A stretch of DNA of 64,000 bases from Bilabrum cf. latius (lineage: Eukaryota), in the NCBI GenBank assembly GCA_965178125.1, contig OZ237746.1, positions 310,001-374,000 of the forward strand, written 5' to 3'. Below the pieces are notes generated by a model that was given only the letters and a program-made list of their open reading frames with translations, was not told where the DNA came from and did no database searches. Positions within the stretch are counted from its first letter, which is position 1. The number at the start of each line of letters is the position of its first letter. Both the position numbers and the translations under genes were made by a program. Positions 714-23,729 of this stretch are shown here, one piece after another.

Positions 714-2375
714 TCACTTCTCAATTTTACAGAGGAATTTGGAAAGTTTTCCTTTTTTGTTCTTTGGTGGGTTCTCTTTTATCCATTTTTGAATAGCGAT
801 GCTATTCTCAACACTCAGCTGTTTCTGGATTTTCTTATGGACTTGTTCCGTCGGTGTAATCTCCTTTTCTAATTCCAACTATTCAATCGTTTCCTACTGC
901 TATGCGACTTGTTTCTGTAGTTCTCTAATCTACTCTCGAAGAACATCTACCTCGGATTTTGCTTTTTCCATCTCAGCAGAATGACGAAGTGCCTAAAATT
1001 TAGATTGGAAGCCTTTTAGTAAGTCTGCGTGTTTCACATTAAATTCTTGTTTTCTCTATTTGTTCATCGTTGAATGAACACCTACCTCTGACAATAGTGT
1101 TTTAATCATAGGTGTACCAAGGTTCTTCACTCTACCGTTCAGTTCCTGCTTTAGATAATTGCGGAATTCCAAGACTGTCATTTTAAAATCTCTGCCTTCG
1201 TCCAGCCACTCTTCTTTTAGAATTTTTAAAACCGGATGTGCGCCATCAAGAATTCCTTTGTAAAAATTCTTTGATTTTGGTGCGAATTGTCCTGTAAAGT
1301 CTGGTGATTTATCATAGATTTCAACCAATAACATATAAAATGCCTTAGCCACTTCTGGATTTTCTGTAAAACGTTTTAGTGTTGTAAAGTATTCTTTGTC
1401 TCCTTTCTTTGATGTATTCACATCCAAAACACAATATCTACGGATTTCCTCGGTGATTTTGATTGGACTATCATTCGTATCAATAATTAGATTGAATGTA
1501 TTCGGACGACTTTCGGATTTGACAAACTTCTCATTACAGGAAAAGTGTTTTTCCGTAATAAGATTTCTTAGTGTTGCCTACATGGCGTCCCAAATAGTTG
1601 GCGAGGCTTTTGGAATTTCATTAAAATTGACTAATAGTTTCCCGTCCAGAATTGAGTTGAAGGCGTCGGGTTGAAGCATCTTGTGTGTAAGCGTCTATAG
1701 TGTAAGGGTATATCCGAGTAGTTTTCTCATAAGGAAGGTAATAATCATCGATTTACCAGTTCCTTGTGGAGATTTCAAATATAGTGCTGTTCCCAACTTC
1801 TTTCCGCCCACAATAACGTGAGCCAACCATTTCATCACAAAATCACACTATTCTTTGTCTTCTGAAGTCCACACCTTCTGGATATGTTCATAAATCATAG
1901 TCGCGCCTGCTTTTGCGTCTTCGGATAAATCCTCTATGTTTCCACAGTTTTCCCGTGTAAGTATAGGTGAACCCATAACGTTAATTGTTTGATTGTCGTA
2001 ATCCACGGTAGGTGAATTAAATTTTCTTACAATCGTAAATACGTCGGTATTCTCATTTAAGAACCAGTCTCGTGCTGACCAAGTCTTTACTCTTTTGTTG
2101 CCCACAATCGCGTAAATACAGTGTCCCCCAATCAGGTAATTTTCAGTAATATTTTTATTCGTAAGGAACTACCAGACTGGTTTCTGGGGTTCGTCATCAC
2201 TTATGTTATTCCGATTTAATTCAGATGCTATTAGAAAATACACCCCGCCACCTTGCTCGTGGGTGCGGTAGAAGTATTGTCTAAGGTATTGAATACATTC
2301 CTCTTGTTTTCCGGCATTACATAGGTCCATAAGGCTTTTTGACGAATACGCTTTAGTCGGCAGAGTGAATGACAT
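714..2375 (-). CDS. Superfamily 3 (D5-like) helicase, 553 aa with TAG=Gln
   Basis: One frame joins ORFs 2169-2375, 1848-2105 and 1056-1427 through TAG codons only. Walker A KSPQGTGKS, Walker B LVNFNE, motif C IIDTN, C-terminal coiled coil, TGA stop. Confidence 0.88.
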
Positions 2376-2389
2376 TTTTGTTGTTGTAC

Positions 2390-2421
2390 TATAGAATACG
2401 AAAATAATCCTTAAGGTACGA
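2390..2421 (-). promoter_or_regulatory. Putative promoter motif upstream of helicase gene
   Basis: Second copy of the 32-bp motif, 14 nt before the ATG at 2375. Confidence 0.6.
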
Positions 2422-2432
2422 TACGGGGCATC

Positions 2433-3488
2433 TCAATTTTCTATATCCCACTCCAAAATTAAATTAGGAGCAATTTCTTGGATTTTATTCTTTGGTTCCC
2501 ACGTCCAATGTTCTGGTTCTGGAAAATCTTTCCATTCTATTTGATATTCTGTTTCGTTCTCGGATTTTATTTTTTTTGGCAGAAAGATTGTCTGAGCATC
2601 TCGGTTATTGTCCTCATTATCAAAGTCGATAATCTGTAATTCCTCTTTTGGATAAGCCACTAAATCATCCTAATCCACAACATATAAGGGTGGTTGTCTC
2701 GGTCTTAGTAATACTTTAGTTATCGTTTTGATTTCTGGATTATAGCGTAAATCTGAAGCACGAAAATTTCCGGATAATTTTTGCTGTAAATTTGTAGCCT
2801 TTCTGGGTTCTTCTAATGGTATACGAACTCTTGTACCCTCTTCCAATATATTACAAGCGTCTCCTTTACACTACGTAAAGTCGAAGTGTTCTGGGGGTAA
2901 AGGTGGTTCTTCTATATACTTTTCTAGTTGATATTCATTATAGTTTTCAATGATGTTTGGAAGCATATCCACCCATTCTACGCTTTCATTACCTGTATTT
3001 AACTCATTAACGTTCTATAGGGTAAATATGGCTTTTCCCAACGTTTTATTTAGGTTTTCCACTAATGCTTGTTGTCGGTGGCGACCTGCTTTATTTCTTC
3101 GTACAAATACATCGCTCTCTTCTAAATATCTTTGTAAAGCGTTAAATTCTTTTCCATTATCTATTTCCAAACGGTGCTGCGGTTTCTGGACATTACCACG
3201 ATTGAAAATCTTTTTTGATGCCTTTAATACTTCGTTCTAACGCTTGGTTTTGAGCGGTTCAGCATCGGCCTACTTTGTATGTAAATCAATAGCAGTTAAT
3301 GCGTATTTATAATTATTGTCGTGGGGTAATGATAATAAATCCATTTGTACCACTTGGTGAGGTTCTGGTACATTTACGTGGGGTCGATTTACTCCTTTGG
3401 GTCGTTTTGGTCGTTTCATTAAATTTACAATACGACTGTTGGGATAAATGTTTAGGGATTGTAATATTCTTTCAAAGGCGCTACTCAT
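2433..3488 (-). CDS. Retroviral-type (rve) integrase with C-terminal chromodomain, 351 aa
   Basis: QMDLL...IDNGKEF...QALVENLNKTL DDE motifs; YQIEWKDFPEPEHWTWEP chromodomain; in-frame TAGs; TGA stop. Confidence 0.9.
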
Positions 3489-3673
3489 TTGCTATATAGT
3501 TCTTTAATAGAGGTATGCTTTTCCTTGCTTAATTTTAATATTTCTTTGTATCCTATATTGTCAAAATTTTTCAATCAATTTTTGTGTTTTTAATTGGAAA
3601 ACAATTATAATTTGTTTTTTATTTTCCTTTTAATTTTTATGGTGGCATCATAGGAATTACAACATTTAATTTT

Positions 3674-4010
3674 AATCTTTGAAAAAGATATCAAAAGAGC
3701 GGAGGGCAAAGCCCGAGCATCTTGGGAACTTAATTTATTTTTTCTAAGTCTCTTATAATTGACCTGTAAAATCTCTCAATTTTAATCTTTGAAAAAGATA
3801 TCAAAAGAGCGGAGGGCAAAGCCCGAGCATCTTGGGGGACTTTTCCAAAGGGACTTAAAATACGTTTTCGTTTTCCTTATAATGTATCATCTCTTGGGTA
3901 ATCGGTTTGGTTGCTTCGGAGAACAATTTAGTCGCTTGGGAAATCCTTGGGAAATCCAATCTTTGAAAAAGATATCAAAAGAGCGGAGGGCAAAGCCCGA
4001 GCATCTTGGG
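3674..4010. repeat. Three identical 53-bp direct repeats in the terminal region of element A
   Basis: aatctttgaaaaagatatcaaaagagcggagggcaaagcccgagcatcttggg at 3674, 3784 and 3958; internal gggc-aaa-gccc hairpin; followed by a ~3x 12-bp repeat near 4020-4058. Confidence 0.9.
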
Positions 4011-4500
4011 AAATCCTTGGTCGGTTCATCGGTCGGTTCATCGGTCGGTTTATCGGTTTGTCGCTTGGGAACATACCTCGGTCTCTTGATAAAATACCTT
4101 GTTCTCTTGGGGAAATCCTCGGTTGGTCTCTTGGTCTCTTGGGAATTCATCCTTCCGTTCCTACAGCAAACACAGAGATATTTTGGACACTTGGTTAATT
4201 TCTTCATTTTTTCCTACTTTACTAAAACATCTCTGTCTTTGCTGTTAGAGTTTATAAGGGGGTTAAATATTAGAATTCTTCAATTTACCCCTACTTCGTA
4301 GGAGTAAATTTTATATCTGAAAATGGGTACATAGAGGGGTTCTATAGGGGTTCTTGGGGAACCCCCTGTGAAATCATTTAGGTTTATAGGGGAAACACTT
4401 GAGTTGCTAAATATGCCTTTAAAGGAGGGGCGAGCGTAGCGTAGCCCTCGTCCTAAACGCTTGGTGTACCTACCACCACCTGTTGTCCCCCCCGGTTTCT

Positions 4501-4940
4501 TCACTGTTCATAACTTCAGTAGGTTCAGCCCATTCATAAACTTTTACTGTAAAAGGCTATCCATTAATTGTTAAAACACCACCTTGAAGCATTTTAAAGG
4601 TAGGTAATGAATTAGTTCCAAACCTAGATTTAAGATAAGATTGAGCGGTAATAGCATCACCTCCAGCAGTTTGAGCTGGCACTGCTTGCTCTAGTTGTAG
4701 CCTAACTGTCATACGATGACGAAGACGAATAAACCTTGATACGGTTTTACTAGTAGGATTAACGGGGAAAGAAAGGGGAAGAAGAGAATTAGATTGATTA
4801 GATGATGGTCTAATTTCTCGGCGGGTATATTTTTGAACACCTAGTTCTGTTCCTAAACTAGCATCTTCAGGGGTTATCATTTGAAGGCTTTTAGGAGCCT
4901 TAATGCTTACTGGTAAATTCTGAACCATTTGTTGAGCCAT
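4501..4940 (-). pseudogene. Major capsid protein, 5' ~146 codons, interrupted by element A
   Basis: Fourth gene of the morphogenesis cassette. Beta-strand-like N-terminus (TVSRFIRLRHRMTVRL...VLTINGQPFTV) reads through TAG 4557 and runs into element A terminal DNA at ~4500. Confidence 0.7.
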
Positions 4941-5011
4941 TTTTTTATATATACACTATAGATATAAATTTTTTAATATCTAAACATATTTTATAATCTT
5001 CTATAATTTAT

Positions 5012-5965
5012 TTAAAAATCTAAACTTAAATTATCGGTTTGTTTTTTAAATACTTGTTTAATGTGAGCTTCACCCCCGTTAAAATTCATTACGGGATACT
5101 TTTCATTTTGTTTATCAACCCAGTAGAACGCCATTGACACGCTCTTAAAGCTTCTATCCTTCATCATTGAATACCAGCGGTAAGGATTAGAAACATATAA
5201 TATATTTTCTATTGGTGAGCTGTCATTAGGATTATACGGGTAGCTGGTTAATATAGGGGATTTATTGACGGCTATAGAGCCACCAGTAGATGATTTTGTG
5301 GTCACCAATTCTTTATTCACTGGAATATCACTTTCTACGATAATAGATTTAACAGGGCACCAAGAATTTAAATTCGTCTATCTAGCCATAAAAACATAAT
5401 CACCACTAGCAGGGGAATTATTATATGAAAGTTTAGCAAATAAATCACTCGGTGTGGTTGTTATTCCTTCATATTCAAATTTATCAAATAAAGCAAAAGC
5501 TTCAAAATTAACAAATAAATAATAATTATCTCTAAAATCTTCAGTTGTTGATAAACTCCATTTATTATTTTCAAATTTAAAGACTGGTTTATCACCACTT
5601 GGAAGGCTTACCAAATCACAAATTCGGCTTAACTCTTCATTAAATTCATTTACAATATCCTAATATGAATAATAAAATTTAGCTTTTTTACCTAGAACTA
5701 TATAATCGCCTGCTCTGGCTCCTGATGTTTTATTCTCAAGAGTAAATTTTAAATAGGTTTTACCGCTGTCATCCTAATATTCAGGTTTAAACACCGGTAG
5801 CATAAATTTATTTAAATCCATCTCTTCAACAGCCGTTAAATAATTTTCACTTTGTTTTAATATTAAGCCTTCACGGGTTTCATTCACTACCGCCTATCTC
5901 GTCTAATTGTGGGGGACAGATGAACTAACTAAATTCAATCTTACAAATTCATCGCTATAACTCAT
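5012..5965 (-). CDS. Minor capsid (penton) protein, 317 aa
   Basis: ATG 5965 to TAA 5012 with TAG read as Gln; WCPVKSII-SDIPV, PYRW and FYWVDK-YP motifs; lies between protease and MCP. Confidence 0.82.
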
Positions 5966-6108
5966 TTTATTTATATATTAAAGCTATACAAATAAATATT
6001 TATTAATAAACCTTATCTAATATTTCATCTTGATTTTTACCCTTCACTTTTACCAATATATTTAAAAGTTTGATTGAATTTAGATGGATGAAAAATTGCC
6101 CTTCTAAA

Positions 6109-6240
6109 ACGATGGAACTTTTCTAAATAAAAGGGCTTATATCTTCATTTCACCTTCACAAGAGGCCCTACATCCACGTTTTGCTAGAAAACACTATAAT
6201 ATATACGCAATTTGTGGATATAGCCATCGTATGGATTTTA
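6109..6240 (-). ncRNA. Candidate structured RNA, copy 1
   Basis: Intergenic; homologous to 26654-26783; stems ACGATGG/CCATCGT, CTATATCCAC/GTGGATGTAG and AGGGC/GCCCT on minus strand. Confidence 0.45.
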
Positions 6241-6301
6241 TTTTAGAGATAATCATATTTTATTATTTTATTCTAGCCCTTTTATTAGATGGTCGGAGTA
6301 T

Positions 6302-6877
6302 TCAATGTAGAAGCAACGCCACTAACTAATCAGGACTAAGAGCCATAATTTTGGATATTCTAAACATTTCATTTACAAACTAATCATTTGATAAGAAAGA
6401 AAAAGCGTTTCTTAATAGAGCCCATCTTCCACACGTAGCGCTGTTGTTAGCATAACTCTAAATCGGTTTATGATTATAATCAATTTTCCAACCTTCCATT
6501 TTCTAATCAATTAAATACTTTACCAGCGTATTTTCTTCTCCTTCTCCTTGATACAATTGGTCTCTATTAATAAATGGTTTCTATTGGTCGGGTTTTTCTC
6601 CATAGCTATCAAAGAAGTATATTATTTTGCTTGATGGTTTTCTGGTCAATGAAATGAAATGACCGTATGTGCTATTTAGTCCCGTCTTTTTATTAGGATA
6701 ATAAATAATTACGCCGTCATAACCATCAAAAATATGTTCAATAGATGAGGTCTATTTAATAATATCATCGTAAATAACTATTCTAGGTTTGTAATTCAAA
6801 TGTGCTACACCTAATTTTTGAATTTCTAAAGGAGATAACGGTGTTTGGACTAGTCTATTTAAGTCGTTTATGTTCAT
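6302..6877 (-). CDS. Adenain/Ulp1-like virion maturation cysteine protease, 191 aa
   Basis: His (YGHF), Asp (FFDSYG), oxyanion Gln encoded by TAG at 6458-6460 and Cys (SATCGRW); absent from the standard-code ORF track; TGA stop. Confidence 0.9.
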
Positions 6878-6885
6878 TTATATAT

Positions 6886-7956
6886 TCAATAGAGAAATAT
6901 TTTTTTTGTGCTAACTACATAATTATTATCAACATTAATAGCAACATAACCAAAGAGAGGGAGAGAATGAAGGGTTTTTTTAATTCGTTTTCTAGTAGGA
7001 GCGTCAAAACTTAAGACTGTTTCTAAAATATATTTTAAACTTTTAGCTGTAATTGTTTTATAAATGATATGGGTTGTAATTTCGTTCATAATGGTTCGTG
7101 TCTTCATACCGTCGCTTATTTTGTGGGTGATGTCTAAAACGCTACTTGCTGTGTGCCTTCCTGTAGTTGCTAGGATTTCCAATAAAAAATAAGCCTTTGC
7201 TTTCTGGTTCCTTTTTTTAAAGCCTTCGTAATCATCCAGAATAAATAAATTAGGTTCAGCGGTCAATTTTTTAAAAAACTCAACATTTAATTTAAAACCT
7301 TTTTCTATTAAATCTTTCTCAGGTTTCAAATCCTCTATCTTTCTTTCAGCTTCAATAACAACATCTAAAGGTTTAGATTTCATCAAAGAAGATTTTTTAT
7401 ATTTAAATTCTAATTTCATTTTTTTATAATAAGCCATTTTTTCCTTATATAAAGTGTTTTCATTCTCTTTAACCAAATCATCTATATCAATGAAGGTCGC
7501 GCCTTCTCTTTTATATTTAGGGTCTTGAATTGGTGATATAACATACATATTTTTATATTTTAATCCTCTATACATCCTTATATAATGTAAAGCTAAATGA
7601 CTTTTCCCGCTTCCACTCTTACCAAATAATCGCACATATTCACGCCCCTATGGAAAGAGCATAGGAAAAGGTAAATATTGACTATTATCTTTAATCGCAA
7701 ATTCCTAAACTGACCGTATATATTCATCTTGTAATAGTTTATGTAATTGTTCCCTTTTCTTGTCCTTATCAACGTTATATCTTACTCGGCTTTCTCCGTA
7801 ATAAGATTTTAAAACATCATCTGTTATCTCTTCCGCTTTGACGTGTTGAATATCTTTAGCGTTCGGGTCGTAATAAATAAACCGGTTCTATTGTGTTTTT
7901 TTATATTTTTGAATAGCTACAATATGGCTATTTTCCGTATATTGTAAAGATAGCAT
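6886..7956 (-). CDS. FtsK/HerA-family (A32-like) DNA packaging ATPase, 356 aa
   Basis: Walker A GKSGSGKS, Walker B LFILDD, TGRH motif; N-terminus extends to ATG 7956 across two TAGs. Confidence 0.9.
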
Positions 7957-8048
7957 TATATATAATAATAAAATAAAATAAACCATTTATTCACACGGGT
8001 TTAAAATATTAAGTTGGTTCCTTCTTCTATCCTTCCTCACAAAAAAAG

Positions 8049-8864
8049 TTATAGAGACATAATTATATTTTTAATTTCCGCCCGTGTTTTCCTATTTATG
8101 TATTGGTCAATCCACGATATTATCTTATTAATATTTGCTTTAGAATACTTTGAAAATTGTTTTATTATTTCCACATTTCCTAATGCTTTTCTCATTAGTC
8201 CTTTTAGGCTTTGAAATGATTTTGACTTCTCGCTTTGATGTCCTTTTATTCTTAGCATACTTTCTAATCGCATTCTTATGGAATATAAATATCCTAATGC
8301 TTCCCTATCAATTAAATCATTGACTCTTTTTTCATTCCTCTTCTCACCTCTTAATTTAAATAAATCCTTCAATCGTTTTAATACTTTAAAATTATTAGAA
8401 CCAAAGTATTTATCTACATCTCTTATTAATCCATCTTTTACCTCGTCCTAATCTATTTCATAATCACTTATATGATAAATTATGCTTATTTCATCTATAA
8501 ATTTTCCATCAAAAGCCCAAAAATCAATTTTTAAGTATGGTTTATCTCCGCTAAATATCTATTTATAAATGGTTTTAACGGGTGTAGATATGAATGCTTT
8601 TATGGTCTTGTATTTTTTATTACCAGCTTTAACCTCAATAAAATTAACCTAACTTATAAAAACCTTTACAAATCTTATTAAACTATTTATAAATTCAGGC
8701 TCTACCCTCTAATATAAATCTATATCACTAGCAAACAAGGAATAATAAGGAATAGCATACGAACCATTTAAAAATAAATTAGCCCCCTTCTTAAAATTCA
8801 CCTCATCAAATATATCGTTCTCGTATTCATTAAAATAAGCTTGTGTCAATTCATTAATTTTCAT
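8049..8864 (-). CDS. Pol-beta-superfamily nucleotidyltransferase-like protein, 271 aa
   Basis: LNGSYAIPYYSLFASDIDL fits the hGS-x(n)-DhDh signature; later LKIDF; several in-frame TAGs; TAA stop. Confidence 0.6.
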
Positions 8865-8921
8865 TATATATTATAAGTATGGATAAATAACAAATTATAT
8901 ATACCCAATATATACAATAAT

Positions 8922-9311
8922 ATGAGCGTTAAATAGAGCATAAATGATATGACAAATAAAAGCCTTCATCATCTTGGAATAAACAGAAATGATTATAAAA
9001 AAGAAATTGATAAAATGGTTGAAGATACCGCAAACCAAATATTAAACGCAACCACAAAAGGAAAGACAAAAGGGGGAGCTGTAAACTTTCTTGGTGGATA
9101 GCCGAACGTTCTCGCTGGAGGTCCCAATTATCTCGCTGGAGGAAAAAAGAAGGGTTCAAAGAAAGCCCCTAAAGCTAAAAAGCCCCGTAGTGCTAAATAG
9201 TTAAAGAGGGATAAATTAATGAAATGGTGCCGTCAAAAGGGAATGACAATGAAAGCCAGCAATGCTTTTATAAAGAAACACGACCTTATGAATAAGGATA
9301 TTTCATTTTAA
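8922..9311 (+). CDS. Small basic protein with repeated diglycine motifs (putative virion core protein), 129 aa
   Basis: ATG 8922 to TAA 9311 with three TAGs; TKGGA, FLGGQ, LAGGP, LAGGK followed by KKKGSKKAPKAKKPR. Confidence 0.7.
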
Positions 9312-9388
9312 AAGACAGCCTACCAATTGACAAATTATCTCTTAAGTTTATAAATTATTAATTATATCATTAATAATATATATATACA

Positions 9389-11467
9389 ATGTCAAACAAT
9401 ACAATTAATGATTTACTGAAGGGTATTATGTAGAAACGGTCTAATCAACTTAGGATACAAAATGACCCACAAGTTAGATTAATGATATAGCAAGAAGAAG
9501 ATGAAGCAGAAGCCAGAAGAAAAACCCTAAAAGATGATGCTTTTCTTCGTGCTAATTATGTTCCTATTGATGTTAGAATTGAAAGACAACAACAACAACA
9601 AGGAATTGAAAATATTATTAAAAATATTAAGACTATGAACGCTAAAAAAGAATTACCAATTTATCAAATAGAAAATTTACAATCATTTATAAATAGAAAT
9701 CCAGATTTACCGGATAAATTAAAAAGATAGGTTGTAGATACCATTAATAATATTAATGTAAGGTAGGTAGTAGGACCAGCAAGCGATAAGAAAAAGGTAT
9801 TTGATGGAATTAAAAATATTAATATGAGATTATTTACAACCACTAAAGCACAACGGGACGCAGTATTAGAACAATTACCAAGCGATATGAGAGGATTAAA
9901 AGCAGTTCAAATACGAAACGCTTTACGACAAGCTGGAATCACGAAAACCCCCCAAGGGTAGAATGTTTCACAATTAACTAAAGTTGATGACGCTGTTAAT
10001 GCTTTATAGGATGTGTTAAATCCTCCTGAAGCCGTTCAACAATAGCAAAGAGATGACCCGCAACCTGATAGACCTGAACCAGATAACCCGCAACCGCCAC
10101 CAGAACCAAGACCAAAACCCCCTCCAACACCACAAGAAGCATTAAGCCCAGAACTACAAGAACAAATTGAAGCACTTGAAAGAGTAGCAAACGCCAATCC
10201 TTCAAGTAGTAGAAAAGCACCAAAGAAAACCGAACTAGCATCAATACTCAGATAGTCAAATGTTAAAGGTGTAAAAGGACGGTCTAAAGTTGATTTTATA
10301 AAAAGTGCTTAGAAGAAATTATCAGAACTTAAACAAAAAGCACAAGAACAAGAGGCATCACAATCATCAGGACAAGAAGAAGAAGGGGAGAACGCCAGTA
10401 GAAATTTATCAGGCTAGTTTTCAAAAGTATCACCCGCACCAGTTCCACCTAGTGGATTCTTACAAGCATCACCAGAACCACAAGGACAATCACCAGAACA
10501 AGAACAAGGACAATCACCAGAACAACAACAAAGCACATTTGGTTCTTTAGGACAATCGGTTATGGATGGTATCAGTTATTTAACAGGAAAAACAGGCTCA
10601 CAACCACAAGCACCCCCCGCAGGTCAAGACAGAGGAAAAGGTGAAGCGATGGCAGTAGATGAAGATGGAGAACCTATTACAGATGAATTTGGAAGACAAC
10701 TTACAGAAGTTCAATTCAGACAAAGACAAGCACAGGCAGAACGAGATGAAGCACAAAGACAACAAGAAGAAAAAGAAAGACAAGCTAGAGAACGGAGGGG
10801 AGCCCCAGATGAAGAACCAAGAGATGGAGAAGCCGTAGAACCAGCACAACAAGCACAACCAGCAGAACCAGCACAAGAACCAGCAGAACCACAAGAACCA
10901 CAGAAAACAGATGATGAAATAGCCAAATCAATAGGACAATCAATAAATGCTAAAGGCAATAAAAATGAAATATTATCATAGTTAAAAGCAAGAGGAATAA
11001 ATCCAACAGACGCCAGCCCAACAATTAACACTTTAAAATATATTATACGAAGGCTTAAAGCCGGAGTCTTACAACCTAATTTATCAACTGATGCTGTTAG
11101 GTCTTTAGTAGCTAGAGCAAATACAGAAGGAAGAGCAACCAGAAGTGATAGAACATTAGCAAAATCAAGACTAAACGATACGGGATATGAATTAAGCGGG
11201 AAGCCTCAATGGACATATTCACCACCAGCTCAAGGTTTCGGAAATAAAGACCCTTATAATATGTTAATGAAAGCTATTAATTTAATTATTGATTAGAAAA
11301 TAAAAACATAGAACAGGGGCGGTAGTTGTGGATGTGGCAAGCATAAAGGAGGACAAATTGAACAAGAATATTTTAATATAGCCGGTGGTAAAGGTAATCA
11401 TAATGTGAAGGACAAGGTAAAACAAATCTTATATCAACACTTTGAAAAACTAAGATTATTAAAATAA
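9389..11467 (+). CDS. Large Gln/Glu/Pro-rich hypothetical viral protein, 692 aa
   Basis: Single frame open except for many TAGs, often within Gln-rich runs (VQQ*QRDD); includes ORF 10562-10981; TAA stop. Confidence 0.78.
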
Positions 11468-11731: not shown

Positions 11732-12592
11732 TGAACTCTGCTGCGAATCAATGAGTGCTCCTTCTACATGCCCAATGGCCAAATCACGGACCCGCTCCCA
11801 CAGTTGGGGCAGTTCCATAAAAAAAAACAAACAGGACGTCCCTGCGCCCGTCCCGCGCCCTCTCCCCCCCACGAGGGACAGTCCGCCCCGAATCGACTGG
11901 TTCTCCTCAGTCGCGTCTCGCGCATGCTATACCACACTCGCCACAAATGTACACGCTACCCCAATCCTTGCATCGTCTGCGCCTCCAGGCTCGCTCCGAT
12001 GCCTCCCCTTCTAGTCCTGCCCCATTCTGATCTGCTGTCTCCCTACGCACCCGTACGTCTCAGCCTTCGCCAGAAATCCTACTGCCTTGTGGTCTGGCCC
12101 CACTCGGCTGCCTCCGCTGCCCCTCCCTCCCCATGGGCCTCCACGCTCCCGAGCCCTACTGGCTTGCTCGGGCCTGTCCGTGCCCCTTCGTCGTCCCCGC
12201 CACGCGTCTGGTTAACCGCGCTCGGGGCATCCCGATCCTCCCCTTTCCTCCGTTCATCTTGGAATCCCCCTCTCCGTCGCCTCCCCCGGTGCCACCCGAC
12301 CCCTTGGTGGGCCGCCGCCCGTCCACCCTGTCACCTCCGCCAAGCTCCCCCGTCTGCTCCTGTCCCCCTCTCACCTGGCCCCCTCGCTGTCACCTCCCGC
12401 CGTTGTTGTCCTCCACCTGCACGTGCGCTGCTGCTGTACCCTCCCCGTCGGAGCCCCCATCGCTGTCTCACAGCCCTCAATCCCAATGTCTGATGACACA
12501 GATAATGAACTCTGCTGCGAATCAATGAGTGCTCCTTCTACATGCCCAATGGCCAAATCACGGACCCGCTCCCACAGTTGGGGCAGTTCCAT
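11732..12592. repeat. Ngaro terminal block B2-A2-B1 (87-bp B repeats flanking ~687-bp A repeat)
   Basis: 11732-11818 equals 12506-12592; 11819-12505 matches 19837-20521 apart from poly-A length. Confidence 0.95.
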
Positions 12593-13755
12593 TACTTTCC
12601 AATACTTGCAGCAGTTGCAGCGTGGTCCAGCGCTGCCGTCCACACCCGTGTCGGCTGAGTGAGGTCAACCGAGGAGGGGAGTGGCAGGGGCCGAAGCGCG
12701 AAGATGTTCTCGTTCCGGTAGCGGCGGGCTGCCACCAGAGTCTTCCAGGCACCCGCGCGCATGATGGTGTCGTCCGAGCAGCCCTGCCTACTCAGTGTGG
12801 TGATGGCCGTCACGCGCAGGGAGTGGCCCGACAGGTGCAACTGGGGCCGACCGCAGCACCGGCGAAACTCCGCGATCACTGTAGCCGCCCCGCATCGGGC
12901 TGGTGCGAACAGGTACGCTGGTCCAGTCGATGGGCGGTGCTCGAGGAATCGGCGTAGAGCCGCCACCGATGCGATGCCATGTGCGGCGCGCAGGTACTCC
13001 AGCAAGATGCGGACACCGCAAAAGCGGGCGCCGTGGGGCTGGCCACCGACGTACCGCACCGGACGGACGCTGCTCAGCATCAGGGAGCGCGTGTCCCGCG
13101 ACTTGTTGGGTCCCAGCAGGATCTCGATGGAGCTGACGGCACCGTCCGAGTCCACGCCCACCACCAGGTGGCCCCGTGCCATCCCGCGCTGCTCGTCACC
13201 CACAGTCGCCTGGGCGATTTCGCCCAGACGTGCGGCGCTGAAGAAGGCTACAGCCGCTGCCGTGCGAGCCGCGTGCTCCTAGGGTCCCCGTGGCCGTGCG
13301 GTGAACCACACAGCGAGCCGATGCAGGTCAGCCGGGTGCTTGCGCCCAGAGGCGGCCTTGGAGGCCACCGGGCCGCCCGGTGCCGCTGCCCTGGCCATGT
13401 GGGTGGCGAAGTACGACAGCAACGAGCGCAGACGCTTGGACTGGCCACCCGGCAGGCCGTGCAAGATCACGAACGCCCTGAACACGGTGCTGACGTATGA
13501 GCGCAGAGTCGGTCCACCGATCGTGCCCGTGCGGTCCTCGCCGCGCCACACCGCGTACCTGCAGCACGCGATGTCGAGCGCCCGTTGCGCCCTCAGTGGG
13601 TCCTCGTAGCCTGCACACGGGTCCTCGGCTTCCCCGCGGTCCCGACGGAATTGTTCGAATCCACGGAGGGCTGTAGCCCCTGAAGCCAGACCTTTAGCGC
13701 CACCGCCCGAGAGCGCCCGAACCGTTGCATACACGTCCAGATCCACGGCGGACAC
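12592..13755 (-). CDS. Tyrosine recombinase of Ngaro element (start uncertain)
   Basis: ORFs 13279-13755 and 12592-13203 joined by TAG; AARLGE (R), NKSR (K), GHSLR (H-x-x-R), GAW, RRY (Y); TAA stop. Confidence 0.9.
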
Positions 13756-16700
13756 CGCGCCCGCTCCACCGTCTCGCCCCAGCGGAGGTAATGGCGAGGC
13801 GAGAAGTTCCGAGAGAGAGCGTCCGCCACGAAGTTGGCCTTGCTGCTCACGTGCTGCGAGAAGAGCTGGAAGTCATGGCGTGTTACGGTAGTGAACAACG
13901 GCCCCAACAGTCTGTTGAGGCACAGGCGGCGTGCAGAGCCCTTGCGAAGAGAAGTACACACAGGCAGATTGTCCCCGTACACGGTCACGTTCCTGCCCGC
14001 GAGCTCCGGTGCCCACCGCTGCACGAGGAGCACCACGGCCGCCAACTCGGCTTGCGGCATCTGACTGGGGCCCACAGTGCGTGGCCAGAATCCCTGGACG
14101 AGGCGCCGGCCGCGATGACTATCGCCCGGAGTGCCGTACAGCTGCAGTGTCCCCCCGAACCCTTCCTTGCTGGCGTCCACGTACATCACTGCCCGAGGTC
14201 CCCGATGTGGGGACGTGGGGAACCGGCGTGAGCGGTTGGCCTGCACGCTGGCACGCAGGGTCCTGAGTGTGTCGAGGATCGGCCGGTCCAGCTGGTGAGG
14301 GCCCCCCCGCAGCGGCATGCGGTGCTGGGCACACTGCAGGAGCCCGAGCTGGGGCTTCAGGCACACCAATGCCCCCGCTGCAAACCCCAACTCTCCGATG
14401 ACGGACTTGAACTCCAACGACGTGGACACCGCCCCGGCCTCGATGATGGATGTCAAGCGCTTCACCAGAGCCTCCTACTTGGCCTGCGGCAGGGCGATCC
14501 GCAGTGCGGCGAGGTCCAGCTCGTACCCGAGGTAGGTGAGCACGGAGCGGGGATGTTCCCCACGCGCCTTGGACCGTGAGATGGGGAAGCCCAGGTACTC
14601 AGCCTCGGACATGAGCTGAGCCGTCATCCATGGGGCCCGGGGTGCGGCAGCGAGAAGCAGCTGGTCGTCGCTGAAGACGGTGGTTGCACACGGCGCGCGC
14701 GGGAGGGCGAAGCTGCAACGCTCACGGAATCTGCGGTTGAAGGCGGTGCTGGTTAGACAGGCCCACCCCGGCGAGGACGCCGAGCCCATGCTGAGGACAG
14801 CGTAGAGAGCTGCCCGGTCCCCCGTCTTGGACCACATGTGACACGCGTCCGCCAGCCGAAGCTTGAGCGAGAAGAACCACTTGGAGAAGTCAATGGCGGC
14901 ACCATGCATCGCCACCCCTGCTGGAAGCTAGCGGTGGAACTTCACGGCCTCCTTCATGACCACGGTGATGTCGTCGAGCAAGCACGGCGTGTACTGCCGG
15001 TAGTCCACAAAGCCATTCACGCCCTTCCCCGTGGTGGAGCTCTCGCGGGCGGACGCGTCCACGATGGCGCGATACTGCCCTGCGGCCTTCTTGGCGATGT
15101 AGCTGGTGAACGAGATGCGAGATGGCGGCACCTCGTGCTCGGCCAGTGGCACGATCCAGCCGGCACGGACAGCGGCACCGTGCGCCAGCTCAGCATGAGT
15201 GCGCGTGGCAGCGTCTGAGTAGCGTGTCTGCTCCACCGCCGCGTCCCGTGGACTGCCCGCGCCGGGGTCAGTGCAGAGTGGGAAGCCGTAGCGGATGCCG
15301 GCCACGGCCGCCTCATACAGAGACAGCGCCTGCCAAGCCGCCGGTCCCCGAGGTTCCGTCGGGGGACAGCGCACGCCGAAGAAGGACTCCAACCGGCGCA
15401 GACGAGCGCCCGTGCAGCGGTGGCCCCGGACAGAGCCGCGGGCGATGGCCACGTCAGCCATCGGGTCGAGGAGCAGTCGGTGTCTGGCGAACTCAGCAGC
15501 CGGAGCTGAGGACACGCGGCGCAGCGGCGCGGAGGTGAAGTCGGCCAAGCGGGTGGAGGGGATGTCCTCGGCCGTCCTGGCTGTGGGAAGCGGCGGCTCC
15601 GCAGCAGCGGCGGCAGCCATGCGGTGCAGCACTCGAGGCAGCGTGGAGCGTTGCCACGTTGCCCGGTCGCGACGTGCACGGTCCTGCACAGCAGGGTCCA
15701 GCAGAGAGGGCACCGGCTTCAAGCGGCGGGAGGAGCTAGCGATCGTCGCGGAGAGGCCGGCTGCCGTCAGGTGTGCCTGGGATGAGGCAGGACCCGTCCT
15801 GGTGATGGCTAAGTCCGAGGCGAGATCCGACCGTGCTGTCTGCCCGACCGCGCGTCCCTGCCGGGGCGCCACGCGAGCCCCACCAGCATGGCTGACACCG
15901 CCCGCCATGATCTCCTGCCTGCTCTCGACTCCTCCACCACGGCTGACACCGTCCTCCACGATCTCCTGCCTGCTCTCGACTCCTCCACCACGGCTGACAC
16001 CGCCCTCCACGATCTCCTGCCTGCTCTCGACTCCTCCACCACGGCTGACCCCGCTCTCCACGATCTCCTGCCTGCTCTCGACTCCTCCACCACGGCTGAC
16101 CCCGCTCTCCACGATCTCCTGCCTGCTCTCGACTCCTCCACCACGGCTGACACCGCCCTCCACGATCTCCTGCCTGCTCTCGACTCCTCCACCACGGCTG
16201 ACCCCGCTCTCCACGATCTCCTGCCTGCTCTCGACTCCTCCACCACGGCTGACCCCGCTCTCCACGATCTCCTGCCTGCTCTCGACTCCTCCACCACGGC
16301 TGACACCGCCCTCCACGATCTCCTGCCTGCTCTCGACTCCTCCACCACGGCTGACACCGTCCTCCACGATCTCCTGCCTGCTCTCGACACCTCCACCACG
16401 GCTGACACCGTCCTCCACGATCTCCTGCCTGCTCTCGACTCCTCCACCACGGCTGACACCGCTCGCCACGATCGCCTGCCTGCTCTCGACTCCTCCACCA
16501 CGGCTGACCCCGCCCTCCACGATCTCCTGCCTGCTCTCGACTCCTCCACCACGGCTGACACCGTCCTCCACGATCCCCTGCCTGCTCTCGACTCCTCCAC
16601 CACGGCTGACACCGTCCTCCACGATCTCCTGCCTGCTCTCGACTCCTCCACCACGGCTGACACCGTCCTCCACGATCTCCTGCCTGCTCTCGACTCCTCC

Positions 16701-17828
16701 ACCACGGCTGACACCGCCCTCCACGATCGCCGGCCTGCTCGCGACTCCTCCACCACGGCTGACACCGTCCTCCACGATCGCCTGCCTGCTCTCGACGCCG
16801 CCAGTGCCGCTGATATGGTCCGCCCCGACCGCATCACGTGCACCCCTGCGGTTCGCCGCGGAGTTGGTGGCGGCAAGTGCACGATGGCCGGCCCGGTGGC
16901 CCCGTGACCATAACGTCGGCAATTTCCAAGATGACCAGAAGCGCCCCCTGGCTTGGGGCGCCGTTGCATTGCGTGGCGGTCTGTACGACCGCCCCCGCAC
17001 CTCAGCCCCTCCGTGCCGAGGTCTACAGATCTGCCCGGTGGGCAGACTGGGTCCCTCCTTCCCTCCCGCCCCATCCTCCGTTGGGGCACGAGTGAGCTTC
17101 GCCTCTCCAGTGAGGCTAGCTGCCGCAAATTGCAACGAGGCACCCGAGGGCACCTGCTGCGCGGGAGTCGATCCTGTCACTCCCCAAGCCGCGTCCTGCA
17201 GTGCAGCATCCTCCCCGTGCTGCCCGCCGAGCCCCCAGCCCCCCGCTGTGGCCCTCCCATTCCACGTGACCGGTGCTGCCGGCCACCACGTCGATCCAAA
17301 TGTCAAACTGCCCCCCCAGCCCCAGGTCTGTCCCCACGGACCCTGCCCAGGCCATCCCCCCCATCGCCAGCACCCACCGGCGCCATCCCCCGCAGGGGCT
17401 GCACCCCCCCACGGTGCACCCCACGGAGATGGCCAGCCGCGACCCCACCGGCGCGCGGCTGCACCCAGGACGGGGAGACGGCCACATGGCCGCCACCCCG
17501 CCGCCCGTGCATCCCGCGTGCGCCCTGCCACCCGCTCCACCGGCGCCCCGTCAGCGCACCCCATCATCTCGCCGTCCGCCGCCCCCCCGGCGGCCCTCCG
17601 CACCTCGCTGCCCGCCCGCACCACCACCGCTGCCGCCGGTCCCGCCGCCACCCCGGCGTCCATCCCCCCCGCCCCTGCCGCCCGCGACGCCCGCGCCCTC
17701 ACCGCCACCTCCCCGGCCGCCGCCGCCACCCGGCGGATGCCAGCGCCCGTCCTACGCCGGCATCGCCTCTGGTGGCGACGGCGGAGGCCGTGCCGAGCGT
17801 GAACACCCAGCGCGGCCCCCTTGGCTAG
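13593..17828 (-). CDS. Pol: reverse transcriptase-RNase H with long repetitive N-terminal region
   Basis: One frame across TAGs at 14928 and 14475; AIDFSKWFF, LSMGSASSPG, FSDD, YLGY (RT); YVDAS, AELAAV, YGDN, NFVADALSR (RNase H); frame open up to the gag TGA. Confidence 0.9.
15887..16804. repeat. 51-bp coding tandem repeat, ~18 copies (GGGVESRQEIVEDGVSR)
   Basis: Visible directly in DNA and in the translation of ORF 14928-17729. Confidence 0.95.
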
Positions 17829-17831
17829 TCA
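17783..17831 (-). promoter_or_regulatory. Putative stop-codon readthrough signal: UGA-CUAG, 8-nt spacer, 38-nt stem-loop
   Basis: Minus strand TGA CTAGCCAA GGGGGCCGCGCTGGGTG-TTCA-CGCTCGGCACGGCCTCC; gag and pol are in the same frame. Confidence 0.7.
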
Positions 17832-19811
17832 GTCACCGAAGATGGACCGCCAGTCGCGATCCACATTGGGGGTGCCGTCGGCGCGGCGCCGCGACGTGTC
17901 CGGTTCCGCATCGATGTCGGCCACTCGCTGCATGCACTCGACCAGCAGTCCAGGGACACCGTTCACGGTGTCGAAGGGGGCCAGGAGCCGGGTCAGATCG
18001 GCGTGAGGCGGCGGAGAGGTGGCCGGGTCACGCCACCAGCGGCTGCCCGCTGCCCACGCCGCGCAGCTGCGGAGGCGATCACCCGCGCGCAGCACGTTCT
18101 AGCCGGGGGTGAGCTCGGAGCCCGCCGCGGTGTCATACACCCAGCACATCACCTGCTCCGGGACCGAGGTGGCCTGCCGGAGGGGAGTGGTGGTCCCCAC
18201 CGTCGCGACCATCCTTGCCATGGAGCTCGAGCGGGCCCACAGGTCACCCACCGTGCCCAGCTCCGGCGTGGCCAGGTCACGGCTGCGAGGGGCGCCTGGC
18301 TGCGAGGCGTGCCCGATGAGCGTGCGCCGCATGGCCAGGGCTTGGCACGACCGATGCACCCAGATGCCCTGCACGACTGCTGCCAGCTTGCCCGAGCCGC
18401 TGCCTGCCCCCGCCCGGAGCAGCCCGATGGTGGCGTACGGTTCACGCCGCTGCAGGGCGGACCCCAGGGCTGTCACCGCGGTGACGAAGGAGGCCAGGGC
18501 TGCCTTGCCCGCAGATGGGGCCTTCAGGGCGCGCTCGCCGGCCTTGCCACCACACACCGCGTCCACCATGGCAGCCAGGACGTCAGCGAACTAGGCAGGG
18601 CAGCGCAGGGGCTCCAGCGTGAGCAGCCTGAGGTCGTGCTCCAGAGCCGCACGAAGGAAAGTGCGGACCCCCTCGCGCACGAGGCGGCTGTCTGGGGGCG
18701 GCGCGGCCCCCGTGGCGTCGATCAGTGCGGCCGTCGTGTGAGCCAGCGAGGTGCCTGTGGGGGAGCTAGAGGGTTCAGGGACGGAGCCAGCCGTGACCGT
18801 GTACGTGGGGGGACAAGCGTCGGTTGCAACCGTCTCACCGGGGGGTTGGGCCGCCGTGGGCCGGGGGAACGCCGCCGCCTCGCCCATAGCGACGAGGAGC
18901 GGTAAGACGGAGCCGCCCTCCAGCGGGCGCTTGCGGTACAGGTCAGTGGCCTGCTGAGCCAGCTCCTGGATGGCGTCGCGTGGGGCCATAGCTGCCAGCA
19001 TGTGGAACAGACCGAGCGGGGCTGCGGGGCCGGCGGAGTACTTCAAGCCGCGCAGAATGACCTCAGCCCAGAGTGCCGGGACTCCGGTCTACAGGCGAGT
19101 CTGGAGCCGGCGGGCCGCCTCGGCGAACTCGGCACGATGGACGTCAGGTAGCGGCGGCAGGGGCCCACTCAGGGCGGGCAGCGAGCCCACATCAATGACC
19201 AGCAGGAAATCACCCATCAGCGCCGCGGCGTTGGCCAGCACGGAACGAGCGGGCCCGCGCCCAAGTGCATGCCCCGCCGACTTGCCCAGAGCCACAGCCT
19301 CATCGTCATCCGCTTGGCCCAGCGGGATCCCATCCAAAGAGCCGGCGTCCGCGTCCGGCACGGCGTCCGCCTTGGGCAGCTGAATGTCCTCACAGATAGA
19401 GTCGAGGCGCGTGGACAGCAGCGGAAAATTTGCATGCGTCACGGTCAGGAATGAAGTAACGTAGTCCCGAATCTCCGTCTGCAGGGCTTCGAATTCCGCG
19501 GACCCCAGGCTTTCGGGATCGATGGAGGCCAGCGCGATGGTCATGTCGCCAAGTCGGCGCGTCGCCCAGCGGTCATCCCAGAGGCAACGAGGCTCCGCGT
19601 CCCCAGACGATTTACTCGAGCGAGCAGCAGTCGAATCAGCTGGAGCAGCTGCGTCTGGCACTGCGGTTTGCAGCCACTTCACTGTCAACGGACCGGACAA
19701 GTCTTGCAACGGGGCCAGGATTAGCCGAAATGCCTCACCAGCCCGCCCTGTGCGGAGTGCAACCTGTACAGGGGCAACATATTCAGCCATTCCCGTAGCT
19801 GCAGAAGACAT
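17829..19811 (-). CDS. ORF1 (gag-like) of Ngaro element, 660 aa
   Basis: ATG 19811 just inside repeat A1; ORFs joined across TAGs at 19089, 18591 and 18099; TGA stop. The gag call is positional. Confidence 0.75.
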
Positions 19812-20956
19812 AGCTGCGGACAGTCCGCCCCGAATCAAAAAAACAAACAGGACGTCCCTGCGCCCGTCCCGCGCCCTCTCCCCCCCACGAGGGACAGTCC
19901 GCCCCGAATCGACTGGTTCTCCTCAGTCGCGTCTCGCGCATGCTATACCACACTCGCCACAAATGTACACGCTACCCCAATCCTTGCATCGTCTGCGCCT
20001 CCAGGCTCGCTCCGATGCCTCCCCTTCTAGTCCTGCCCCATTCTGATCTGCTGTCTCCCTACGCACCCGTACGTCTCAGCCTTCGCCAGAAATCCTACTG
20101 CCTTGTGGTCTGGCCCCACTCGGCTGCCTCCGCTGCCCCTCCCTCCCCATGGGCCTCCACGCTCCCGAGCCCTACTGGCTTGCTCGGGCCTGTCCGTGCC
20201 CCTTCGTCGTCCCCGCCACGCGTCTGGTTAACCGCGCTCGGGGCATCCCGATCCTCCCCTTTCCTCCGTTCATCTTGGAATCCCCCTCTCCGTCGCCTCC
20301 CCCGGTGCCACCCGACCCCTTGGTGGGCCGCCGCCCGTCCACCCTGTCACCTCCGCCAAGCTCCCCCGTCTGCTCCTGTCCCCCTCTCACCTGGCCCCCT
20401 CGCTGTCACCTCCCGCCGTTGTTGTCCTCCACCTGCACGTGCGCTGCTGCTGTACCCTCCCCGTCGGAGCCCCCATCGCTGTCTCACAGCCCTCAATCCC
20501 AATGTCTGATGACACAGATAAAATGCTGACACCAAACAGGTTTTATACCTAAACGAAGCAGAACGAAGAGGGGACTTATCAACGGCTAAATTATTAAAAT
20601 TTGAACTTATGAAAAAAAGTATTGAGTCTGTAAAGAAAAATTGGTTATAGAAAGCAGAACATAGAGCAGTCTTTTTAACAAGTGATTTTGAACTAGCACA
20701 AGAAATATTCAAAAAATCCAGCATATGCGTAGCTATACCCAGCGATAAACTGTATAGCAAAATCCATAAAGATTTAGATAATGAAGATAAGGATGTAGCA
20801 AGACATTCACGAGCTGAATTTTTGAAAAGTTTTAACCCTAATGAGTATAGCGTGTATAATACGTTTGAAGGGCTTTCATAGATGGTTATGTCAGTCTATA
20901 ATATGACCTACAGAGTGTAATTATTTGAATATTATTAAAATATAAATTAATAATAT

Positions 20957-22114
20957 TTATTTAGTCTTATTATTAAAATTATCCTTTAGAGTTTTTGATA
21001 TATTTTTAGCCGGCTCCGTTGTTATCTTCCATTGAATTAAATATTCATCTTGTCCCTCTTGATTCTTTCTTCTCTTTATTATTTTACCTATATCATTCTA
21101 ATATTTTCTTTTAGTAGCCTCATCAACATATGAATCTTTCCATTTAACCCTGTATGTATTATTTTTATTCTTTCTTATCAATTTTTCAATTATAAATATA
21201 TCTTGTGCTTTATTCTCGTATGGTTTAGATGCTAATAACAACTAATCTCTATTAAAGTATGTATAGGGTATGCCCTCAATTTTATATAATGGGGGGTTAT
21301 CTGGTTTTATTATTACTCTTTCAATTTTATAAGGCTTTACGCTATATTTAATATCTCCCGCCCTAAATGCTCCGGTTTCCTTTATCCCTTCTATACTTCT
21401 AGGATAATCTAATCCTATTCTTACCATTTCACCCTCATTTAATACATCACATACTTCACCCTAACATCTAGGCGGTATATATGGTAGATTCTCCCTTTTC
21501 TTATTCAACATTTCCTATCTTGTTTTATAACGCTCGTTTAATATCTCCCTCAATTTTGGTATTAAATGTCTCCAGTTCGTGATAGTTGTCCCCGTTCTTA
21601 TCTCCTATGAATTCAAATAATAAAATATAGCTCTCCCTATTTCCTCATTCAATCTCTCCACTAAAGCCATCTACGATTTACGCTTCACTCTTGAAAATAT
21701 ATGCTCTATCTTATTCTTCTTTAGATATTCTTTAAATAATTCATTATCAAATTCTCCCCCTTTATCTGTTCGTATCATTTTAGGTTTCATTAAATAATTT
21801 CTTTTATAGATTTTTTGAAAAGCTTTTATCACATCCTCCGCCCCTCTATCCTTTAACTCTTCAAAATCTAACGCTAACCCGCTCGTATCTATCACAACTA
21901 ATAAATATTTTGAATCGTTCTTGGTAGCGTAAGGGAGATACAATAAATCAGCCTATTGGATAAGCCCCTCTTTAGTAGGTTTATAATATTTAACATAATT
22001 CAATCCTTTCGGTTTCTTTATCGGCTTCATTAAATCGTTCGTGATAGACTTCGTATTAAATCCAAAACTTGACTCATTAATATCATTATCTTTTTTCTTT
22101 CCTCTCTTACTCAT
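20957..22114 (-). CDS. Second rve integrase with chromodomain-like C-terminus, 385 aa
   Basis: Q*ADLLYLP, RTDKGGEF, *MALVERLN; co-linear with the 2433-3488 integrase; TAA stop. Confidence 0.9.
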
Positions 22115-22154
22115 TATATATATTAATTGATTTTAATATTTATAAATTAATTAT

Positions 22155-22526
22155 TCACGAATTAAAAAGCCTATTAATAGCTTCATTTACTTTAATCTAT
22201 TCTTTAATTTTCCTTATCTCTTGATGAACGTCAATCAGCTTGTCCTTGTCTTTCTTTGTCAATCCAGTCATCCTTCCTTTTAATGCTTTTAAAGTTTTCA
22301 TATAAGGGGCTATAGCTTCTGCTTTCTTTTTGCTCACCTCTTTATATTCCACATTAAGAGCGGTTAATTTACTATTCACTTTATTTTTTAATTCTGTCTC
22401 TTTTATTTTTAGTTGCTTTAACTTTTGTTCTAATTCACGATTGGTCTTCTTAAAGTCTTCTACAATATCAAGAAATTCATTCTTTAACTTTGAGCGGGTA
22501 TTAATCACTTTTTGTAATTTATCCAT
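22155..22526 (-). CDS. Basic coiled-coil hypothetical protein, 123 aa
   Basis: ORF 22197-22526 extended through TAG to TGA 22155. Confidence 0.65.
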
Positions 22527-22596
22527 TTATATATAATTACTAGATATTTTTTTTATTTTTTTTAAACTATAGAATTTTATAAAACGGGTTTAATAA

Positions 22597-23700
22597 ATGA
22601 TGCCAGAGTGTACGCGCAACCTAGTCTCGTTAACAATCAGACATGGCAAGACCTGACAAAGCTGTGCCTGTGCGCGACCCTTGACCGGACTGACCGGGGC
22701 TGGGAAGAGCACGTGCACTACTCCGCCGAGGAGGAGGGGGTTGGGAGGGTGGGCAAAAATTACCCAATCTCCGCCCCTCTCCTGAACACAGAGAGGGTAT
22801 GCGCGTCATCGCAAGCAATCCGTTGGCTTGGTCGCACCTTCCCGGTCGCAACCGCCATCGGAACCCAACGAGACGTTCACGCGCTCCCACTCTGGCATCA
22901 ACACCGAACCCCATCCGGCGTTAGGATCATGATGCCAGAGTGTACGCGCAACCTAGTCTCGTTAACAATCAGACATGGCAAGACCTGACAAAGCTGTGCC
23001 TGTGCGCGACCCTTGACCGGACTGACCGGGGCTGGGAAGAGCACGTGCACTACTCCGCCAAATCTTACCGCCATGTCTTGTACGCTGCGGCTGTGTGGCT
23101 CACTCCAAGTTCAGCCGCAGCGCGCTGGCCAGCACCCACACTGGCCTGTTCAAATCGAGGCTCCTGCCGCCGAGCTCCAGAGGAGGCAAACCTTCCCTGA
23201 CGCTCCGCAAGTACACCTCGCATGCAGATGCCGACTTCCATCTGCCAAATCGCCTAATGACCTCGAAGGCGACCCCAGCACGGTCCAAACACATCACTGC
23301 CGCGATGCGGATGGAATGTCCGTGCACCGCTCCTGCAACTTCTCGTGAGCAGAAGCTGCGGAGCGCCCGTACTACCTGCGCCTTGACGATCGGCTTCGTG
23401 TTCGCCACGAAGACTGGCCCTGACGTGGGGCAGCTGAGCGCCAGCTACCGGGCGTAGTCTTCGTCTGCGCCTGCAGTTGGGGCGTGGCTCGCTGCTGCCC
23501 ACGCCACGAAGGCTCGCACGCCGCAAAAATTACCCAATCTCCGCCCCTCTCCTGAACACAGAGAGGGTATGCGCGTCATCGCAAGCAATCCGTTGGCTTG
23601 GTCGCACCTTCCCGGTCGCAACCGCCATCGGAACCCAACGAGACGTTCACGCGCTCCCACTCTGGCATCAACACCGAACCCCATCCGGCGTTAGGATCAT
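22597..23700 (-). mobile_element. Internally deleted, non-autonomous Ngaro-type element (different family from 11732-20521)
   Basis: Split direct repeats: 178 bp at 23523-23700 and 22753-22930; 131 bp at 22929-23059 and 22597-22727; encloses a YR 3' fragment; GC-rich. Confidence 0.88.
23100..23522 (-). pseudogene. Tyrosine recombinase C-terminal fragment
   Basis: GHSIRIAA...RRFGRWKS...VYLR motifs; N-terminal part missing. Confidence 0.85.
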
Positions 23701-23729
23701 TAAAATAAAATATTGGGCTACATTATAAT

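Follow-up and report, generated by a model that had tools for sequence, protein, structure and literature searches.

We analyzed a window of 64,000 nucleotides (nt) from Bilabrum cf. latius (GenBank assembly GCA_965178125.1, contig OZ237746.1, positions 310,001 to 374,000 of the forward strand; positions below are those of the window). Within a virophage-like stretch it holds a complete element which, by its ends and domains, is a Ngaro-type tyrosine-recombinase retrotransposon. The element lies on the minus strand, as do all of its features given below. A conserved in-frame UGA separates its first open reading frame (ORF1) from pol and is followed by two predicted hairpins and an open linker, and the element also carries splice-like signals. 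Programmed readthrough of the UGA probably joins ORF1 to pol in the groups of copies designated A, A', and B, and is the best explanation of their sequences.

An in-frame UGA kept among copies

ORF1 (17829..19811) encodes 660 amino acids (aa), contains three TAG codons read as Gln, and ends at the TGA at 17829..17831. The pol frame (13593..17828) continues without a shift for 1411 codons, comprising a linker, reverse transcriptase (RT), and RNase H. A first-pass annotation of this DNA had described a single frame interrupted by this TGA alone, and our reanalysis agrees. Read on the minus strand from the ATG at 19811 to the TGA at 13595-13593, the frame is interrupted by nothing but five TAG, which are sense codons here, and the TGA at 17831-17829. 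The CTAG that it reported directly 3' of this TGA is present, and the Gag-Pol product that it estimated at about 2070 aa would comprise 2072 aa if the UGA is read through. The CUAG context and the 8-nt spacer (17821..17828) fall within a 29-nt run that is identical in A and A'.

Searches of the host's own genome with RT gave 62 and 65 matches, and 34 stretches were retrieved. RT identity to group A, which includes the element in the window, is 93% for A', 49% for B, 30% for C, and 27% for D. The in-frame TGA is kept in copies of four groups: 3/3 in A, 2/2 in A', 2/2 of the B copies with ORF1, and 5/5 of the C copies with the ORF1 end. The frame continues past the stop in all 12, and none of these 12 junctions from A, A', B, and C carries a sense codon at the stop position. 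The first-pass annotation had proposed comparing copies for TGACTAG, and here the outcome was mixed: A and A' have TGA-CTAG, but B has TGA-CTG and C has TGA-AGG.

ORF1 of A is 71% identical to that of A' and 29% to that of B, while the ORF1s of C and of D have no detectable likeness to those of A, A', and B. No ORF1 was present in any of the three group E copies seen. Several group C copies (L014, L015, L018, and L020) are 5'-deleted, with the A-repeat end joined to internal sequence. Group D, the most numerous (e.g. L024 and L107), has a 300-codon +1 overlapping frame across its presumed Gag end. Outside this genome, no relatives were confirmed among viral contigs (66 and 55 pattern matches) or metagenome contigs (601 and 200).

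Selection on the codons after the stop

Codons 8-22 past the stop (17763..17807) encode an Arg-rich peptide that is conserved in frame 0. Between A' and B, 11 of these 15 residues are identical although 20 of the 45 bases differ. Codon changes in frame 0 are 9 synonymous versus 4 non-synonymous, with 0-1 synonymous changes in the other sense frames. Conservation of the peptide between A' and B was matched by 0 of 100000 position shuffles, and the comparison of A with B (9/15 residues) gave p 0.0009, although both values are optimistic, since these 15 codons were chosen by eye and compared with an offset of one codon.

The first in-frame AUG after the stop is codon 56 in A (17661..17663), 67 in A', 25 in B, and 307 in C. 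The peptide thus lies upstream of this codon in A, A', and B. Our data suggest that it is under selection ahead of any in-frame AUG, and this is the best evidence for readthrough. For a frame-0 peptide selected before an AUG is reached, the simplest route for the ribosome would be through the UGA.

The reading frame is also open over a longer distance. Between the UGA and RT, frame 0 has no stops in A, A', or C (807, 851, and 424 codons), and the other frames have 5-10. In C, 306 open codons free of AUG follow the stop, which was seen in 0.4% of shuffles. The 29-nt run identical between A and A' extends from -3 to +25, and 0 of its 8 sense codons are changed, compared with 185/452 (41%) in ORF1. 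Reduced synonymous change 3' of the stop, a feature of type II readthrough signals, is therefore found here, but the rate over codons 1-24 (6/20) is near background.

Two predicted hairpins behind the stop

The hairpin that the first-pass annotation had placed 8 nt past the stop was recovered as described: stem-loop 1 (17783..17820) has 16 of 17 positions paired around a 4-nt loop, TTCA. The 81-nt hairpin region has a z score of -3.15, with 2 of 200 shuffles as stable, and the fold window starting just past the stop ranks 2 of 96 windows along the element. Adjoining it is a second hairpin absent from that annotation, stem-loop 2 (17722..17781, core about 17732-17769), with z scores of -3.6 in A and -3.9 in A' and 13/15 core pairs kept in A'. 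Two tandem stem-loops are predicted within the first 110 nt in all of A, A', B, and C (z -5.05, -4.33, -2.61, and -6.36, respectively).

Conservation of stem 1, which the earlier annotation had singled out for comparison, was largely seen between A and A'. One double and three single changes keep their pairs, but one end pair is broken. Over the 31 pairs of both stems, 21 are unchanged, 6 carry a single change, 1 carries a double change, and 3 are broken. A 3' stem beyond a spacer of 7-12 nt is typical of type II signals, and is found here. The UGA of such signals is followed by CUA or CGG, as in A and A', while B has CUG and C has AGG. The two-hairpin structure is real as a prediction, and its evolutionary support is moderate.

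A probable splice between Gag and the recombinase

The YR ORF (12592..13872) lies in frame -1 to pol, and its first AUG is at codon 159 in A and codon 47 in A'. Splicing offers an explanation. A probable phase-1 donor, G/GTGAG (18834..18838; the slash marks the cut), follows ORF1 codon 324 within a 30-nt run identical in A and A'. A probable phase-1 acceptor, TCTCGCAG/ (13854..13861), lies just inside the YR frame, in a stretch of 38 nt that A and A' share without change. A splice from 18838 to 13854 would take out 4985 nt and fuse Gag in frame to the recombinase (744 aa). Contigs from four sequencing runs covered 16950-19950 of the window and listed no intron-like joint, a result with no bearing on expression or on an intron of this length.

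Similar signals are found in the other groups. The phase-1 GTGAG donor precedes the stop by 1007 nt in A and A' and by 989 nt in B and C, the latter two having no other phase-1 GTRAG in ORF1. D has a phase-1 donor about as far from the presumed end of its Gag. Since the ORF1s of C and D are unlike those of A, A', and B, their donors were matched by position and not by alignment. A phase-1 acceptor just inside the recombinase frame is present in A, A', C, D, and E, although phase alone is weak evidence, as any pol-frame Gln codon yields phase 1.

The motifs also fit those of the host. The best predictions for 16 Ras exon pairs have acceptors that end in GCAG in 12 cases, in TCGCAG in 7, and in TAG in none, with GTGAG or GTAAG as the donor in 9. 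The acceptor in A is the commonest predicted host acceptor, and the donor motif fits predicted host donors. On these sequence features, it is likely that a 4985-nt intron joins Gag to the start-less recombinase. This would explain why the recombinase ORF has no conserved start. As the donor lies upstream of the UGA, the Gag-recombinase product would be independent of readthrough.

Genetic code of the host

TAA and TGA are stops in this host, and the reading of TAG as Gln is supported. Of 7 TAG positions compared between A and A', 5 have CAG or CAA as their counterpart. The 21 dynein domain matches contain 6 TAG, 0 TGA, and 0 TAA, and eight dynein frames of 956-974 codons contain 138 TGG and no TGA, as expected if UGA terminates translation. 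Contig C23 encodes a tRNA with anticodon CUA. This tRNA is not close to the single Gln(UUG) tRNA compared, and we take it to be a Gln tRNA from the codon alignments and by general likeness. The sole UCA tRNA predicted by ARAGORN in 24 loci is on contig C111, which is mitochondrion-like and whose genes are read under mitochondrial table 4. A T-loop pattern search stayed at background level. Contig C29 (L108) has a match to selenocysteine tRNA (tRNA-Sec; 67.7 bits), and with this gene present the host probably has selenoproteins.

Split codes in which TAG is Gln and TAA and TGA are stops are rare, and a bicosoecid was named in none of the literature on such codes among the matches listed. By its combination of virophages with Ngaro elements, the host would probably be a Cafeteria-like protist. 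The first-pass annotation had tied the use of UGA to a host in which UAG cannot be the leaky stop. This link is only trivially true, since UAG cannot be a stop here, and nothing in our analyses shows UGA as the replacement of an earlier UAG.

Alternatives to readthrough

Several observations weigh against readthrough, in addition to the optimistic p values given above. Covariation in the stems is modest: 28/31 pairs are kept versus 25.4 expected (p 0.068; energy p 0.027), and the pair count over three sequences does not beat shuffles (106/500). The helix in B is register-shifted and weaker (z -1.9, rank 13 of 96), and the first stem of C covers the stop. The CUAG is not kept in B (UGA-CUG) or in C, where UGA-AGG is no leaky context, and C copies favor no frame after the stop (8/8 vs 7/11). 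The two B copies with ORF1 are decayed, and a third B copy lacks the junction. In one of the three copies of A, the linker past the stop is frameshifted. Group D has no stop at all but a single unbroken ORF of up to 1928 codons, and all 7 of its copies that hold both sides are open (5 by motif, 2 by ORF lists). In Candida albicans Tca2, a UGA with an 8-nt spacer and a predicted pseudoknot gave no readthrough in a yeast reporter, in the part of that report considered here (PMC2194720). Finally, a block at 16941..17279 is conserved between A and A' at the nucleotide level regardless of frame (11 synonymous vs 26 non-synonymous codon changes). The first-pass proposal of programmed readthrough is partly supported: it has in its favor the UGA kept in 12/12 copies, the kept stem, and the selected peptide, but against it modest covariation, a CUAG that is not kept, and a group without the stop.

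The same block is 85% identical between A and A', includes their longest identical run (49 nt), and has small hairpins. It could serve in packaging, as a promoter, or in splicing, or could mark a tract of recombination.

Expression of pol from a start of its own is unlikely, though it is the strongest of the alternatives. Ribosomes would have to reinitiate or start internally at the first in-frame AUG, or an internal promoter would be needed, with the hairpins serving that start or packaging. In a loose alignment, the first in-frame AUGs of A and A' fall within a few bases of one another and may correspond; both have a purine at -3 and G at +4. In C, an AUG overlapping the stop begins a 103-codon -1 frame, a block conserved in bases without a favored frame lies at 16941-17279, and the Tca2 junction contained a minor promoter, according to the part of that report considered (PMC2194720). 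However, a start within pol leaves unexplained both the selection on a peptide before every in-frame AUG and the in-frame stop in four groups, and out-of-frame AUGs precede the in-frame one in A, A', and C. Slightly less credible still is alternative splicing from the mid-ORF1 donor to a phase-1 acceptor past the stop, such that the stop is skipped. In A and A', the CTAG past the stop forms a phase-1 acceptor of its own; C offers a phase-1 CAG at +10 and a host-like TTCGCAG at +622, and phase-1 sites in the conserved block are common to A and A'. B nevertheless keeps the peptide with no phase-1 YAG before +133, and the best predicted host acceptors end mostly in GCAG (12/16) and never in TAG (0/16). 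No added constraint is seen on the codons ahead of the stop (6/18 synonymous changes), and none of 5 genome matches to the donor region is a partial copy of spliced type. Reinitiation and alternative splicing remain as rivals mainly for group C.

The other alternatives carry far less weight. A stop with a following structure also marks the +1 shift site of antizyme, and C has the 103-codon -1 frame at its stop, so ribosomal frameshifting at or near the UGA was considered. It is improbable, as pol is in frame 0 and a shift would lead off it. In A, a stop one codon ahead of the site blocks the -1 frame, and the +1 frame stays open for about 43 codons. Past the stop, selection in A, A', and B is in frame 0. 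Decoding of the UGA as selenocysteine would be compatible with the tRNA-Sec match on C29. We consider it very improbable: Rfam gave no match in 11000-21000 and none relevant in four other loci, and no pattern resembling a selenocysteine insertion sequence (SECIS) was found in A, A', C, or D by a loose scan that a divergent SECIS could escape. Least plausible of all, to the point of being negligible, is that the TGA arose in a dead copy by nonsense mutation or misassembly, or that the host reads UGA as sense. Group D does show that one unbroken ORF can exist. However, a TGA kept in 12/12 copies of four groups contradicts a mutation or error, the junction is also found in a contig of a different study, with 2 differing letters, neither at the stop, and a public protein ends at the same residue as ORF1. 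A sense reading is opposed by the TGA-free dynein frames and by the confinement of the UCA tRNA to mitochondrion-like C111.

The element and its surroundings

The element has the split direct repeats of Ngaro elements (DIRS order), arranged A1 ... B1 A2 B2. A1 (19837..20521) and A2 (11821..12505) are each 685 nt and 100% identical, and B1 (12506..12592) and B2 (11732..11818) are identical repeats of 87 nt. RNase H follows RT, as in Ngaro elements. Pfam matches to both are weak and below curated cut-offs, though motifs are visible: RVT_1 at about 14915-14517 (E 5e-4) and RT_RNaseH at about 14189-13935 (E 3e-3). The recombinase is 3' of pol and overlaps it, with H-x-x-R and Tyr in the translation and a match to Phage_integrase (PF00589, E 9e-7) above cut-off. 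No methyltransferase, protease, or DDE integrase was matched in Pfam to E 0.05, a threshold that a diverged domain could escape.

The name Gag for ORF1 is a label by position only. ORF1 matches no Pfam family and no protein in searches, its profile search returned just 2 proteins (one near-identical fragment and one low-complexity match), and its structure model has a mean confidence score (pLDDT) of 38. The linker of pol includes a 51-nt tandem repeat with a 17-codon unit (15880..16803). At the same place, A' (L009) has units of about 15 codons, and both repeats are in frame. A scan for bacterial promoters, irrelevant here, was empty.

The insertion is hosted by an AT-rich virophage-like element (714..11467; GC about 30-37%) with Pfam matches to DUF5906, rve, and Sputnik V18-19. 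Its genes include a helicase, an rve integrase, a Sputnik-type minor capsid protein, and an ATPase. Across the virophage-like parts (714-11467 and 20957-26500), genes use TAG as sense, up to 13 per ORF, and include two rve integrases and DUF285 repeat genes. An ORF at 4419-4940, likely the major capsid gene by position, is apparently cut short. Elsewhere in the window, the minus strand of 27391-62559 holds a tandem family of long intron-free armadillo-repeat/kinase-like genes, as well as an FG-GAP/EGF surface protein, a beta-helix protein, and a DDE_1 transposase. A repeat of 176-178 nt (22753-23700; 52148-52323) occurs as two direct copies and one inverted copy 29 kb away.

Comparison with known systems

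The comparisons in this section draw on parts of the published accounts. Closest in layout are the Ngaro elements that sit within the endogenous virophages of Cafeteria burkhardae (PMC8547959). They share the A1-[ORFs]-B1 A2 B2 ends and the order ORF1, RT-RNase H, YR, and are likewise GC-rich elements within AT-rich virophage-like elements, with several unrelated types per genome. ORF1-deleted copies occur there as here, and our 5'-deleted group C copies resemble its ORF1-less types. The portion of its main text considered gives three ORFs and makes no mention of readthrough or frameshifting. The present case departs from that account in three points: TAG is a Gln codon in the host, a single UGA interrupts the shared frame of ORF1 and pol, and in one group the two are fused. 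A further description of the class allows for a YR ORF that is shifted or overlapping, and in the portion considered does not mention readthrough or a stop codon (PMC3783388).

The junction itself resembles viral signals. Type II signals of alphaviruses, tobraviruses, and furoviruses share the UGA-CUA, an 8-nt spacer, a stem-loop, and reduced synonymous change 3' of the stop (PMC3159437). In contrast to their single stem around a long loop, the present signal would consist of two compact tandem hairpins with short loops, is in a retrotransposon, and is predicted only. The gag-UAG-pol of the gammaretrovirus murine leukemia virus likewise places RT in frame with a structural gene and has a 3' structure beyond an 8-nt spacer, an arrangement that probably sets the Gag to Pol ratio. 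It differs from the present element, which has UGA instead of UAG, hairpins instead of a pseudoknot, and no protease or DDE integrase. The gag-UGA-pol of Tca2 is the nearest retrotransposon parallel, with an in-frame UGA, an 8-nt spacer, and a predicted structure (PMC2194720). Tca2 is a long terminal repeat (LTR) element, whereas the evidence here is comparative and concerns translation of the codons right past the stop.

Readthrough in gag/pol genes and the combination of UGA-CUA with a stem are thus already known. We did not find their use in a tyrosine-recombinase retrotransposon described, and the accounts consulted do not take up how the downstream ORFs of DIRS-order elements are translated. 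No readthrough in DIRS-order elements was found in the literature searched, which left outside most subscription papers, including the main reviews.

A proposed model for expression of the element

We propose that a single transcript beginning in A1 would give rise to three products. Most ribosomes would terminate at the UGA to release ORF1/Gag (660 aa). A minority would decode the UGA with a near-cognate tRNA, aided by the C/CUAG context and by stem-loops starting 7-8 nt downstream, and would thereby produce the 2072-aa fusion of Gag, Arg-rich peptide, linker, RT, and RNase H. Independently of the stop, an RNA spliced from donor 18838 to acceptor 13854 would encode Gag codons 1-324 fused to the recombinase (744 aa).

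Taken as a whole, a scheme in which Ngaro elements draw on one promoter, with termination yielding Gag, structure-assisted readthrough yielding Gag-Pol, and one intron yielding Gag-recombinase, seems to us about evenly balanced between right and wrong. It would have the signals kept across groups that are 27-50% alike in RT within one genome, with one lineage having dropped the stop, and in a host where TAG is Gln it would confine the leaky stop to UGA.

If this is true, the 110 nt past the stop would be a compact, testable recoding signal, and type II readthrough would extend to a new order of retroelements. The start-less recombinase would be explained. The element would also be a natural example of programmed stop leakiness in a host with a release factor that has ceased to recognize UAG.
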